This document shows positions 1,858 through 57,015 of a stretch of DNA of 64,000 nucleotides, piece by piece (within the stretch, counting starts at the first letter, position 1; every line of letters begins with the position of its first letter). The DNA comes from Octopus vulgaris (taxonomy: Eukaryota). The translations under genes were made by a program, and so were the position numbers. A model generated the notes under the pieces. The model had not been told where the DNA came from. It saw only the letters and a list, made by a program, of their open reading frames with translations, and searched no databases. The stretch spans positions 88,970,001 to 89,034,000 of the forward strand of contig OX597817.1 in NCBI GenBank assembly GCA_951406725.2. Direction: 5' to 3'.

Positions 1858-2015
1858 ATATGCATATATATATATATATATATATATATATATCAACAAT
1901 CAAGGAACGGCCATAATAGGCCATTCACCCACTAGAAATAACAGCCAAAAGCTTTAACCGCAAAATAACGTTAATTCCGTAAACCAGGAGAAAATTGAAA
2001 AACATTTACCCTGTA

Positions 2016-2122
2016 ATTTCTTAGACGATGCACCGTTTCATCTTCTGTTTAATGGAAAACTAACCTGATTAAATTAAATCAAGCCAATCTACCATAGGCC
2101 CTTAGAATCATCAGTAAGAAAT
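2016..2122 (-). ncRNA. Type I hammerhead ribozyme with extended stem II
   Basis: Reverse complement of 2759-2865. Confidence 0.8.
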
Positions 2123-2758
2123 AGCCAAGCCGGAACAGATATTTTTCACGAGGCATTCTCGTTGCTACCTCGTCAATATCTGACCTAAAATTTTCAAATC
2201 GTCGCACTCGCGCCAAATTTATCGGCAGCAAATAAATATAAGCCGCCGATTCCATTACGGAATTAACCAGAAAATTCATAATTAATCAATATAGGGTGGC
2301 AAAAAAAAATTTTGTAGAATTCTTTTGCCACCAGCGGCCTAGTGGGAAAAAATTAAATAGTCATAAACTATTTTAAGTTCAACATCAACAATCAAGGAAC
2401 GGCCATAATAGGCCATTCACCCACTAGAAATAACAGCCAAAAGCTTTAACCGCAAAATAACGTTAATTCCGTAAACCAGGAGAAAATTGAAAAACATTTA
2501 CCCTGTAATTTCTTAGACGATGCACCGTTTCATCTTCTGTTTAATGTAAAGAATTCTAGAAAATTCTACAAAATTTTTTTGCCACCCTATATTGATTAAT
2601 TATGAATTTTCTGGTTAATTCCGTAATGGAATCGGCGGCTTATATTTATTTGCTGCCGATAAATTTGGCGCGAGTGCGACGATTTGAAAATTTTAGGTCA
2701 GATATTGACGAGGTAGCAACGAGAATGCCTCGTGAAAAATATCTGTTCCGGCTTGGCT

Positions 2759-2865
2759 ATTTCTTACTGATGATTCTAAGGGCCTATGGTAGATTGGCTT
2801 GATTTAATTTAATCAGGTTAGTTTTCCATTAAACAGAAGATGAAACGGTGCATCGTCTAAGAAAT
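2759..2865 (+). ncRNA. Type I hammerhead ribozyme with extended stem II
   Basis: Stem I ATTTCTTA/TAAGAAAT; core CTGATGA (2767); 68-nt stem II; GAAA (2842); stem III ACGG-TGCA-TCGT; GTC cleavage triplet 2855-2857. Confidence 0.8.
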
Positions 2866-3253
2866 TACAGGGTAAATGTTTTTCAATTTTCTCCTGGTTT
2901 ACGGAATTAACGTTATTTTGCGGTTAAAGCTTTTGGCTGTTATTTCTAGTGGGTGAATGGCCTATTATGGCCGTTCCTTGATTGTTGATGTTGAACTTAA
3001 AAATAGTTTATGACTATTTAATTTTTTTCCCACTAGGCCGCTGGTGGCAAAAGAATTCTACAAAATTTTTTTTTTGCCACCCTATATTGATTAATTATGA
3101 ATTTTCTGGTTAATTCCGTAATGAAATCGGCGGCTTATATTTATTTGCTGCCGATAAATTTTGCGCGAGTGCGACGATTTGAAAATTTTAGGTCAGATAT
3201 TGACGAGGTAGCAACGAGAATGCCTCGTGAAAAATATCTGTTCCGGCTTGGCT

Positions 3254-3360
3254 TTTTCTTACTGATGATTCTAAGGGCCTATGGTAGATTGGCTTGATTT
3301 AATTTAATCAGGTTAGTTTTCCATTAAACAGAAGATGAAACGGTGCATCGTCTAAGAAAT
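3254..3360 (+). ncRNA. Type I hammerhead ribozyme with extended stem II
   Basis: Second + copy, 495 bp downstream, with one stem I substitution. Confidence 0.8.
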
Positions 3361-4108
3361 TACAGGGTAAATGTTTTTCAATTTTCTCCTGGTTTACGGA
3401 ATTAACGTTATTTTGCGGTTAAAGCTTTTGGCTGTTATTTCTAGTGGGTGAATGGCCTATTATGGCCGTTCCTTGATTGTTGATGTTGAACTTAAAAATA
3501 GTTTATGACTATTTAATTTTTTTCCCACTAGGCCGCTGGTGGCAAAAGAATTCTACAAAATTTTTTTTTTTTTTTTTTTGCCACCCTATATTGATTAATA
3601 TATATATATATATATATATATATATATATATATATATATATATATATATATATACACACACACACACACACACATATATATATATATGTAATCAGGAACT
3701 CGACGAAAGAAAACTCCAAATGGTCCGTCCTTGTTTTTTCTTGTCCTTTTTTGTATCATGTCTGGATGTCTTGTTGTCGCCCGTTGCATTCTTGTCCTAT
3801 TTTTTTGTATTCTTTTTTATATACATATAGCGGCATACCTACAATTTGGTCTCTTATATGTATGTACATACACACATATATACATACATACATACATACA
3901 TACATACATACATACATACATACATATACATACATACATACATATATATATATGCATATATATATATATATATATATATGTGTGTGTGTGTGTGTATTTA
4001 TATTTTTATTTGATTGAACCCTACACATCCATTTCCAAGTAAGTTTATCTATCTATCTATCTATCTATCTATCTATCTATCTATCTATCTATCTATCTAT
4101 CTATCTAT

Positions 4109-4820
4109 CTTCAAACGGGAAGGAAGAGCTATTTTCATCATCCTTGTGGCTATGGCGAAAGAATGTATCTGGTGGACGCGTCTGAAAGGATTGGAGACAA
4201 ACACTTTCCTCTCTGGTCAATCTCTCATCAACTTCTTCAAGTACCACTTGAAAAGGAAAGTGAGAGTAGAGAGGTAAGTTTTGTCTAGCGAATGTTTTAA
4301 AAAAAGATGGGTGAATGTAGCAAGGATGGCACGTATGAATGACGAAGCCACCTTGAGCATAATCCTATGAACCCAGAAATTGAAAACAGAGGGTTACCCA
4401 CTTGCAAACAAATGTGGTAACATATAACAATATTGACCAAGGTTACCGTGTTCTTTTTCGTAGGCTTTTCTTCCCACGGATAAACCTTACTTGCTTTCCC
4501 CTTTACACCATATATCATAACACTGTGATACACGATCCCTATTGATCGTTTTTTTTTCATCTTCCCCTTTTTTCTTCTTTTTTCATTTCTCTTTTCTTTT
4601 GTTCCTTTTCCTTTTCTTTTTTTTCTTTTTCTTTTTTATTTTATTTATTTCTTTATTTTTTTTGTTCTTTTCTTCCCTTTTACGATCCCTCTTGATCGAA
4701 AACCTACGCCACCCCTTTTTTTGTTTCTTTTGTTTTTTGTTTTTTTCATCCCCCAAAAGAAAAGCTCTACCTTGTAACTTGTCCCATCTGTGTGCAGCCC
4801 TGTGTGGCCAATAAAGAAAC
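4109..4820 (+). mobile_element. Tx1-like LINE, 5'-truncated 3' end
   Basis: Highly similar to ~917-1521 (FKREGRAIFIILVAMAKECIWW...), ends AATAAAGAAAC, preceded by (TATC)n. Confidence 0.9.
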
Positions 4821-55329: not shown

Positions 55330-55454
55330 GCGAAGGTGCGCAGCTCAGTGATTAGGATATTCGTCTCATGAGCATAAGGTCGTCGAGACCAGGCGGTGCG
55401 TTGCGCCTTTGAGTTAAGTACTCCAATCAGCTCAGTCGTAATGAGTAAAAGCTG
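55330..55454 (+). mobile_element. SINE family C head, degenerate
   Basis: GAAGGTGCGCAGCTCAGTGATTAGGATATTCGTCTCATGA. Confidence 0.55.
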
Positions 55455-55978
55455 GTGATGGTGTCGGCTCTTCTAGTGACGTCTATAGTCGCCTGGGGCT
55501 AAATGCATCAGTAACACCCCCACCACCCCGCCCTGTCCCTAGCCACATTCAGATGGCTGATCCCGCTTATATTAAAGAGCAGTTACTGTTTATACCTCGC
55601 TCAGAGATTTATTATTGTTTTCGAACAGATTTTCGACGCCAGTGCCTGTGGTTACTGTGAAAATCTATATATATCTGGCCTGTACAGGAAGTCCCTCAAC
55701 GAAGAACGGTGCTTGCCATGCGCTGACGAGAGGCGATTACCTCGAAACCGGTCCGTGTGTAGCATCCGTATCTTCGGGGAGGCTGATCTCCCTTTGCAGG
55801 CCAGCAAGGACACCGTGATGGTGTCGGCTCTTCTAGTGACGTCTATAGTCGCCTGGGGCTAAATGCATCAGTAACACCCCCACCACCCCGCCCTGTCCCT
55901 AGCCACATTCAGATGGCTGATCCCGCTTATATTAAAGGGCAGTTACTGTTTATACCTCGCTCAGAGATTTATTATTGT
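55455..55978 (+). mobile_element. Retrozyme-like element: 360-bp monomer plus 164-bp terminal redundancy
   Basis: 55455-55618 is repeated at 55815-55978 with one mismatch seen; hammerhead in the unique part; 3' end runs into TA-rich DNA. Confidence 0.85.
55709..55765 (+). ncRNA. Canonical type I hammerhead ribozyme
   Basis: GTGCT-TGC-CATGCG-CTGACGA-GAGG CGATTA CCTC-GAAAC-CG-GTC-CGTGTG-T-AGCAT; predicted cleavage after 55753. Confidence 0.9.
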
Positions 55979-56088
55979 ATATTTATAAAGCTGTATATAT
56001 AAAGATGTATATATATATTTATAAAGATATATATATATATATATATAAGAAAAAAGGTTTGAAAATGCAATTTAAACGATGTTTATTT

Positions 56089-56129
56089 ACTTAACCGGTT
56101 TCACTCTTTGGTAAAAGATTGTCAAAAGT
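56089..56129 (-). ncRNA. Degenerate hammerhead motif
   Basis: Reverse complement of 56841-56881. Confidence 0.5.
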
Positions 56130-56840
56130 TACATTTAAGGAAACATTGAATAATATGGGTTCAAAAAAGTTTTTTACATAATTGTCACATTGAATATTAT
56201 GCATTCAAAAAGTTTTTTACATAATTGTCACATTGGATATTATGAATTCAAAAATGTTTTTTTATACATAATTGTCACATTACATGTATAAATATAGTGT
56301 TTGGTAACAGAGAAGTTCAATAGTGTGATGAGAGTATTTGGGAAAATTTGGCAGAAAAGGATAAAACAAATATATTATTGGGAATTGGTTGCGTTAATTA
56401 TTGGTTGTCGCAAATTGTCACATTACATGTATATATATACAATCTTTGGTACATATATACAGCCTTTTGACAGCAAAAGTTAAAATGGATTTTAAGTCAA
56501 AAGGCTGTATATATATACCAAAGATTGTATATATATATACATGTAATGTGACAATTTGCGACAACCAATAATTAACGCAACCAATTCCCAATAATATATT
56601 TGTTTTATCCTTTTCTGCCAAATTTTCCCAAATACTCTCATCACACTATTGAACTTCTCTGTTACCAAACACTATATTTATACATGTAATGTGACAATTA
56701 TGTATAAAAAAACATTTTTGAATTCATAATATCCAATGTGACAATTATGTAAAAAACTTTTTTGAATGCATAATATTCAATGTGACAATTATGTAAAAAA
56801 CTTTTTTGAACCCATATTATTCAATGTTTCCTTAAATGTA

Positions 56841-56881
56841 ACTTTTGACAATCTTTTACCAAAGAGTGAAACCGGTTAAGT
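56841..56881 (+). ncRNA. Degenerate or variant hammerhead motif
   Basis: ACTT-TTGACAA-T CTTTT ACC AAAGAG T-GAAAC-CG-GTT-AAGT; core has C3U and G8A relative to CUGANGA. Confidence 0.55.
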
Positions 56882-57015
56882 AAATAAACATCGTTTAAAT
56901 TGCATTTTCAAACCTTTTTTCTTATATAATCCCACTCGTGCGATACCCCACAACTCAACTTTATATATATATATATATATATATATATATATATATATAT
57001 ATATATATATATATA

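Follow-up and report, generated by a model that had tools for sequence, protein, structure and literature searches.

How does a non-coding element come to lie in a genome as two copies joined at their 5' sides, with both 3' ends facing out into (TA)n? The question is raised by three insertions, loci 1, 2 and 3, in a 64,000-nt stretch of Octopus vulgaris contig OX597817.1 (88,970,001-89,034,000; the whole stretch is referred to as the window, and coordinates are relative to its first letter), which is animal DNA dense in microsatellites and retroelement remains. An earlier note on this DNA had described inverted pairs at three independent loci and explained them by priming from both 3'-OH ends of a cut (TA)n; all three pairs are present, and the foldbacks are confirmed as real. 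The layout is already published for Penelope-like elements (PLEs), and the loci are additional cases of a known geometry, not a new one; their contribution consists of an empty site revealed by nesting, a test based on allele phasing, and a PLE-type inverted arm on a retrozyme-like array. The agent was very probably PLE machinery acting in trans, and two priming events are preferred over one followed by fold-back, with a rough probability, on sequence grounds, of 0.55.

Three head-to-head insertions between TA runs

The three loci have the same layout, in which inverted arms stand head-to-head (5'-5') with a joint inside and (TA)n outside, and an inverted 5'-truncated copy is present at each. 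Within-window comparison found no sequence common to them, for which reason they are treated as three separate non-coding families, as independent as had been claimed; a single family behind all three was rejected on the same ground. Random orientation of the hammerheads in such foldbacks, named in the earlier note as a reason for doubt, was not found: the orientation is head-to-head at 3/3 loci, with a p of only 0.125 if orientation is random. The parts of locus 1 are as follows.

1864..1893, no strand: left (TA)n flank, 30 nt, of which the final 2 nt are common to the arm
1892..2546, minus strand: left arm, 1.3 units of the 495-bp repeat running leftward; core at 2114, predicted cleavage base 2024
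2547..2569, no strand: 5'-5' joint, with an 11-nt unit piece (2548-2558), 3 nt, and the restart at 2562
2562..3599, plus strand: right arm, two tandem 495-bp units and the short start of a third; cores at 2767 and 3262
3598..3654, no strand: right (TA)n flank, 57 nt

The right arm contains a 495-bp tandem of 2.0 units (2562-3570), and the left arm, 1892-2546, is the reverse complement of 2827-3484 apart from 3 substitutions and 3 one-base homopolymer indels. A small duplication had been reported at 2547-2570 and is found as 2551-2558 / 2561-2568; the joint sits within the unit's own hairpin (copy at 3530-3600 folded, z -2.94). At 3/3 variant sites (2252, 2214 and 2122) the left arm has the alleles of unit 1, not unit 2, and these sites lie where a fold-back copy starting at 2827 would have read unit 2, which argues against simple fold-back. 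The sites fall within 131 nt, a clustering with a rough chance of 0.018 had they arisen after insertion, and heterogeneity of the source array is therefore probable. Measured along the unit, the left arm ends 60-64 nt upstream of where the right arm starts (chance ~0.13), a gap that possibly resembles a small twin-priming internal deletion on one multimeric RNA.

Locus 2 is a 4.1-kb insertion into a long interspersed nuclear element (LINE), which is presumably R4/Dong-like to judge from its motifs.

25154..25599, minus strand: downstream half of the host LINE that locus 2 interrupts; C-terminal coding region
25598..25628, no strand: left (TA)n flank, 31 nt
25627..26941, minus strand: left arm, inverted copy of the right arm's 3' 1.3 kb; core at 25688
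26942..26989, no strand: joint, ~20 nt of C-rich filler without a match, followed by a perfect 13-bp hairpin with its centre at 26976
26977..29711, plus strand: right arm, 2.7 kb, microsatellite-rich and non-coding; core at 29581
29643-29711, plus strand: putative tail, 69 nt, with a small stem-loop at its end
29712..29743, no strand: right (TA)n flank, 32 nt
29744..29794, minus strand: upstream half of the host LINE; in homologues its 16 codons come directly before the downstream half

Segment 25627-26941 mirrors 28313-29642 with 6 substitutions and 12 indels, of which only the substitution 26348/28905 lies outside simple repeats. The strand bias switches from C-rich to G-rich at 26976, the centre of the joint hairpin, which is of low complexity; the 1.37 kb between the arms contains 76 C and 258 G, and the sequence left of 26976 contains 264 C and 130 G. 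As this spacer has the right-arm bias, the right arm is read as a 2.7-kb element and the left arm as its inverted 3' half. A source for the ~20-nt filler was sought in the window and none was found.

The flanks identify locus 2 as a single insertion. On the minus strand 29747-29794 codes for 16 residues and 25438-25599 for 54; a word-based protein search with the 54-residue piece gave no match, a profile-library search gave 387 relatives at E <=0.001, and a reverse transcriptase (RT) domain is present in 3/3 long relatives scanned. Collinearity was assessed on the best 150 of the 387 relatives, 97 of which had an alignment with at least 22 upstream residues; in 68 of these 97 the upstream 15-residue match ends exactly 3 residues before the downstream piece. 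Of the 3 spacing residues the Glu is present (29747-29749), leaving two codons before the Tyr codon at 25597-25599. The LINE halves are collinear, and the 4.1-kb block is therefore one insertion with its unique flank intact, which argues against a foldback chimera at this locus; neither duplication nor deletion reaches unique LINE sequence, and a target duplication would hide in (TA)n.

Locus 3 is the most compact of the three.

56027..56047, no strand: left (TA)n flank, 21 nt, closing a degenerate TA tract from 55979; 6 nt are common to the arm
56042..56486, minus strand: left arm, with a hammerhead-type motif of U3-A8 core at 56125
56430..56540, no strand: central imperfect hairpin, with a 2-nt loop at 56487-56488
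56489..56961, plus strand: right arm, with a U3-A8 hammerhead-type motif at 56845
56929-56961, plus strand: putative tail, 33 nt, A/C-rich
56962..57016, no strand: right (TA)n flank, 55 nt

Segment 56042-56928 is a near-perfect palindrome centred at 56487-56488, with internal 45-nt subrepeats and no coding frame. The 1 substitution and both non-homopolymer indels between its arms lie within ~55 nt of the centre, a clustering with a rough chance of 0.002 in a 443-nt arm, which suggests an older hairpin at the element's 5' end; such a hairpin could self-prime one cDNA or anneal two, and the near-absence of a spacer suits either fold-back or hairpin-guided joining. Next to this locus lies a partial tandem at 55455-55978 (plus strand), a 164-bp direct repeat of period 360, which includes a minimal hammerhead of canonical type at 55723. 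Its 3' end is turned toward the left arm of locus 3, with the degenerate TA between them, and two unrelated elements are therefore placed in one tract.

The outer 3' ends were expected to run into (TA)n, and 6/6 lie within 1 nt of a (TA)5+ run, as against 2.7% of non-run positions that have one within 12 nt; independently defined ends number 5/6, as the right end of locus 3 is set by the run alone. The target is in each case AT-rich or (TA)n. The two ends of each insertion stop at different element positions, again as described earlier, with the right arms exceeding the left-arm end points by 115 nt (locus 1), 69 nt (locus 2) and 33 nt (locus 3); of these one-sided extensions the 33 nt fits the 30-40-nt PLE tail, and 69 and 115 nt exceed it. 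The AT microhomology proposed for the left-arm ends is present as overlaps of 2, 2 and 6 nt with the TA runs (chance 0.23, 0.23 and 0.04 at loci 1, 2 and 3), which is weak evidence at loci 1 and 2 singly and jointly unlikely by chance (~0.002, the product of the single values). Self-complementary sequence is found at 3/3 joints, namely the unit hairpin at locus 1, the 13-bp hairpin at locus 2 and the long hairpin at locus 3.

A search for TA-bounded foldbacks over 968 run pairs returned, beyond the three loci, just 1721-1863 and a borderline pair at 11725/14835. The small inverted structure left of locus 1 (1712-1872) has arms of ~40-46 nt that are ~82% alike and TA-rich outer ends; it may be an older fourth head-to-head pair or a miniature inverted-repeat transposable element (MITE), and it has no ribozyme to orient it. 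A further inverted repeat at 7645-7805 has arms of ~55-60 nt, ~95% alike, with outer ends in (TAA)n-like sequence.

Hammerhead motifs and kinship of the elements

With the hammerhead strand as sense the arms had been said to diverge, and motif scans place hammerhead-type motifs outward in 6/6 arms, each arm having an intact motif and 23-247 nt downstream of it. In the first scan every arm of loci 1 and 2 showed a canonical type I core, and locus 3 and the minimal motifs were missed; later scans, with rules set post hoc, also accepted a U3-A8 core, a helix III of minimal form and one extra base ahead of helix II. The final scan counted 11 motifs in the window, and shuffled windows gave 0.2 each on average (300 shuffles); the 11 motifs make up 7 sites, 4 of which are not inverted (18.7, 20.3, 55.7 and 60.9 kb). 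The locus 1 hammerhead has a long helix II (68-nt region) and that of locus 2 a longer helix III. At locus 3 positions 3 and 8 of the core are U and A, a compensated pair, on motif-only evidence; its palindromic helix III is identical to that of the canonical motif at 55723, and its arm score was reached by 2/5000 arm shuffles under a scorer written after the motif was seen. Unconstrained folding gave no hammerhead fold at locus 2 (z 0.20) or locus 3 (z -0.01), and with constraint locus 2 forms a hammerhead and locus 1 does so for the most part; an Rfam scan of the whole window gave simple-repeat matches only, among the 150 of 214 matches listed. The arm motifs are presumed to be active ribozymes.

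Several features of these motifs may be recorded beside them. A U stands opposite U at the base of helix II at 2767-2857, 29581-29619 and 56845-56877, and not in the window's other four motifs. A second U3-A8 hammerhead-type motif lies at 20293-20320 (plus strand), with a weaker score and no partner copy found in the window. A solo 216-bp ribozyme element at 18575-18790 (minus strand) has (TA)n of 39 and 55 nt at its sides and no inverted copy.

PLE insertions feature an inverted 5'-truncated copy beside the 5' end and, often on one side only, a tail of 30-40 bp; they target (TA)n, which hides the target duplications (Craig et al. 2021, PMC8557442). Head-to-head is their most frequent arrangement, its joints contain palindromes, and self-priming has been proposed for it, with an antisense template (Arkhipova et al. 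2013, PMC3846280). Consistency with the inverted copies of Penelope, which had been asserted earlier, is borne out point by point: the loci share with endonuclease-bearing (EN+) PLEs (PMC8557442, PMC3846280) the truncated inverted copy, head-to-head order, an extension at one end, joint palindrome, 3'-proximal ribozyme and (TA)n or AT-rich target; the extension is a putative tail, and a target duplication would be hidden by the repeat. The loci differ in having no RT or endonuclease coding sequence, in extensions of 69 nt (locus 2) and 115 nt (locus 1) that are above the usual 30-40 nt of a tail, and, at loci 2 and 3, in having no direct repeat. Minimal PLE hammerheads occur as opposite-strand pairs 100-700 bp apart, and PLE ribozymes show U3-A8 covariation (Cervera and de la Pena 2014, PMC4209133); type I motifs, the short palindromic helix III, opposite-strand pairs and U3-A8 are all found here, whereas the loci have U-U at the helix II base instead of the usual G-C, a 68-nt helix II region at locus 1 and a longer helix III at locus 2. 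The U-U mismatch at that position is described for an axolotl motif (PMC7229834).

Locus 1 also invites comparison with metazoan non-LTR retrozymes, whose units range from 150 to 450 bp (Cervera and de la Pena 2020, PMC7229834) and which are recognised by a type I hammerhead that is complete in each of at least two consecutive tandem units (Li et al. 2026, bioRxiv 10.64898/2026.07.22.740005). Two such units are present, the locus is non-coding (longest frame 66 aa), and its GC content is below 45% (0.36 in 2001-3000); its 495-bp unit lies outside the 150-450-bp range, and for this reason it is called only retrozyme-like. It resembles these retrozymes in its non-coding tandem units, type I hammerhead in each and low GC, and differs from them in its longer unit and its PLE-type inverted arm. 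PMC7229834 does not use the word 'inverted' in its main text, and in the accessible part of bioRxiv 10.64898/2026.07.22.740005 the word occurs in one reference title only. Locus 1 is structural support for the proposal that PLE machinery integrates animal retrozymes.

The longest frames in the three insertions are 66 and 51 aa, or simple-repeat translations, and tblastn with 120 PLE homologues gave 0 matches to them, with no RT plus GIY-YIG frame inside; the loci are therefore not filed as autonomous PLEs. A PLE-type frame with RT and GIY-YIG lies at 60891-62675 (plus strand), and because the loci encode no protein while such a frame lies in the window, PLE action in trans is considered highly probable. 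Named relatives of this frame, the one long RT frame of the window, come from molluscs and one coral. A motif scan found no ribozyme in the 1.3 kb downstream of it; its ribozyme region is common only to the 18.6-kb element and not to loci 1-3, and its candidacy as their partner gained no support.

Two priming events or one with fold-back

In the preferred reading each locus would be one retrotransposition event of a non-coding hammerhead-bearing RNA, on which a PLE RT/GIY-YIG protein would act in trans. The enzyme would cleave both strands at an AT-rich site, and each 3'-OH would prime reverse transcription on RNA left uncleaved at the copied ribozyme; two different internal start points would leave a tail on one arm. 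The two cDNAs would extend toward each other, and their 3' ends, corresponding to the 5' sides of the RNA, would be joined with the aid of short self-complementary sequence at the joint. Dual priming would use two RNAs as templates; at locus 1 the template might instead be one multimeric RNA, as in twin priming.

Biochemistry makes these steps reasonable. The PLE protein PAc cuts and extends both strands, starts at two RNA sites bounding the tail, needs no homology to the cut DNA, uses uncleaved RNA and is a predicted dimer (Frangieh et al. 2024, PMC11167929); two-ended priming is plausible because both strands are cleaved and extended from two tail-defining sites, and in the accessible part of that paper two-strand extension is not linked to inverted copies. 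Twin and dual priming are defined for L1 (Meyer et al. 2010, PMC2837659), where likewise both nicked strands prime and the cDNAs join internally with little or no microhomology; L1 differs in priming on a poly(A) tail, in its enzyme class, and in that its twin-primed inverted pieces do not overlap, whereas the arms of loci 1-3 do. Because of this overlap two RNAs or a terminally redundant RNA are needed; the latter would be required for twin priming at loci 2 and 3, and locus 1 is possible on a multimer. The two-ended priming and end-joining of the earlier note is thus a reasonable, unproven transfer of L1 dual or twin priming to PLEs that is partly supported: PAc biochemistry and the locus 1 alleles make it plausible, while locus 3 and the joint palindromes fit fold-back.

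Several observations weigh against the preferred reading. The left arm is nested in the right arm at 3/3 loci, as fold-back requires and dual priming does not, and the arms of locus 3 begin at nearly the same base. The alleles of locus 1 could stem from later conversion between adjacent inverted copies. No cognate autonomous element for loci 1-3, nor one sharing their terminal sequence, was found in the window, and focused Rfam scans (55450-56960, 1893-3598 and 29425-29712) gave no hammerhead family. Under constrained folding helices I and III of locus 1 form only in part of the expected pattern, and the locus 3 motif has no monomeric hammerhead fold even so, which is expected of minimal motifs, as these work as dimers (PMC4209133).

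The principal alternative is a single priming event, after which the cDNA or an antisense template would fold at a palindrome, self-prime and copy itself outward, and AT microhomology would then let the other target end capture the copy; such a course is a tentative possibility, less probable than two priming events. The published explanation of head-to-head PLEs is of this kind (Arkhipova et al. 2013, PMC3846280), and self-annealed 3' ends at L1-induced breaks are known to give inverted duplications (bioRxiv 10.1101/2024.12.14.628481). Self-complementary joints, nested left arms, the jointly improbable AT overlaps (~0.002) and the 2-nt loop of locus 3 all agree with it, and locus 3 together with the small palindromes at all joints fits fold-back self-priming equally well. 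It would, however, need an additional template slip or later conversion to account for the unit-1 alleles at 3/3 sites of locus 1, and at locus 2 a 1.37-kb loop and a ~20-nt filler that has no source in the window; moreover, PAc already extends both cut strands in vitro (PMC11167929). The palindrome could instead have been inherited, already existing in the source copy and being transcribed and retrotransposed whole. This is most plausible for locus 3, where the non-homopolymer differences lie within ~55 nt of the centre (rough chance 0.002), and PLE pLTRs with 18-38-bp 5' palindromes are described (PMC3846280). It is nonetheless quite improbable: the monomer RNA may equally have had the older central hairpin, as a guide to joining, the outer arms hardly differ, and no second copy with the same joint is found in the window.

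One reading limited to locus 3 is considered very improbable: a MITE or foldback DNA transposon whose terminal inverted repeats are long and whose TA target was duplicated. The TA-flanked palindrome of 56042-56928, its 45-nt subrepeats, the missing coding frame and a ribozyme motif with neither monomer fold nor Rfam match would suit such an element, whose inverted repeats are flush with both ends only if 56929-56961 is host DNA and not a tail. Against it, that 33-nt extension agrees with the 30-40-nt PLE tail (PMC8557442), the compensated U3-A8 core is as in PLE ribozymes (PMC4209133), a second U3-A8 motif exists at 20293, helix III is identical to that of the 55723 motif, and 2/5000 arm shuffles reach the score. 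That the palindromes are foldback chimeras of amplification, long-read sequencing or assembly is scarcely credible: the arm differences are mainly homopolymer and microsatellite lengths, like sequencing error, and such structures are known to trouble assemblies (PMC8557442), but mirroring ends at the element ends and leaves the flanks unmirrored, the inversions single out ribozyme-bearing elements, and the flanks of locus 2 are consecutive parts of one LINE frame with the spacing of most aligned homologues.

The origin of tandem and inverted PLE copies is named an open question in Craig et al. 2021 (PMC8557442), and the three loci do not settle it. They do offer two cheap genomic tests. Two-template priming and fold-back can be told apart by phasing the variant sites of the inverted and direct arms, and where an insertion is nested in an older coding element the empty site can be read, which shows whether the flanking (TA)n preceded the insertion or arrived with it. 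In the literature covered, which takes in few subscription papers and no supplements, no statement was found of head-to-head PLEs being made by two-ended priming, of inverted arms on retrozyme arrays or of longer (TA)n as a result of PLE insertion, a weak negative; the accessible part of PMC9977147 has nothing on inverted PLE copies, and supplements of PLE papers may hold examples bearing on the novelty of loci 1 and 2.

The TA runs of locus 2 and neighbouring elements

A cut (TA)n had been taken as the target, and TA flanks are indeed found at all loci; that a long run existed beforehand is uncertain, as the two-codon gap in the LINE at locus 2 limits the ancestral TA run to <=8 nt, compared with 31 + 32 nt (63 nt) at present. 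The 8.5 kb of LINE-matching sequence in the window contains 7 runs of at least 3 TA units and 0 of at least 5, a count that is only suggestive, as long runs tend to break matches and a run-seeking element would choose a rare expanded one. TA expansion before insertion is the simplest account, the LINE being decayed and the insertion young. An unlikely alternative is that PLE insertion itself creates long (TA)n: the telomerase-related RT would prime at both cut ends on a TA seed of <=8 nt and add TA reiteratively, so that repeats are laid down on each side before the RNA is copied. This reading is prompted by the growth from <=8 nt to 31 + 32 nt at locus 2 and by a left-arm template that has no TA tract at that point. 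If true, PLEs, with the retrozymes they carry, would rank among the main origins of (TA)n microsatellites in genomes of this kind, and insertion would itself account for part of the 'microsatellite preference' that has been reported.

Other elements of the window are largely LINE remains. Decayed copies matched by one protein set lie at 4965-6905, 21269-24022, 25154-25596, 29930-30982 and 31453-31961; many end at (TTA)n arrays, and they are nested beside each other. A second LINE family is represented by decayed 3' ends at 1-1180, 4111-4484, 32858-33279 and 51595-52185, the copy at 1-1560 ending in (TATC)n. Repeats of ~185 bp, 70-91% alike, occur as short tandems on both strands at 32159-32718, 43617-43791, 45589-46014 and 48054-49827; the scans detected no ribozyme motif in this family.

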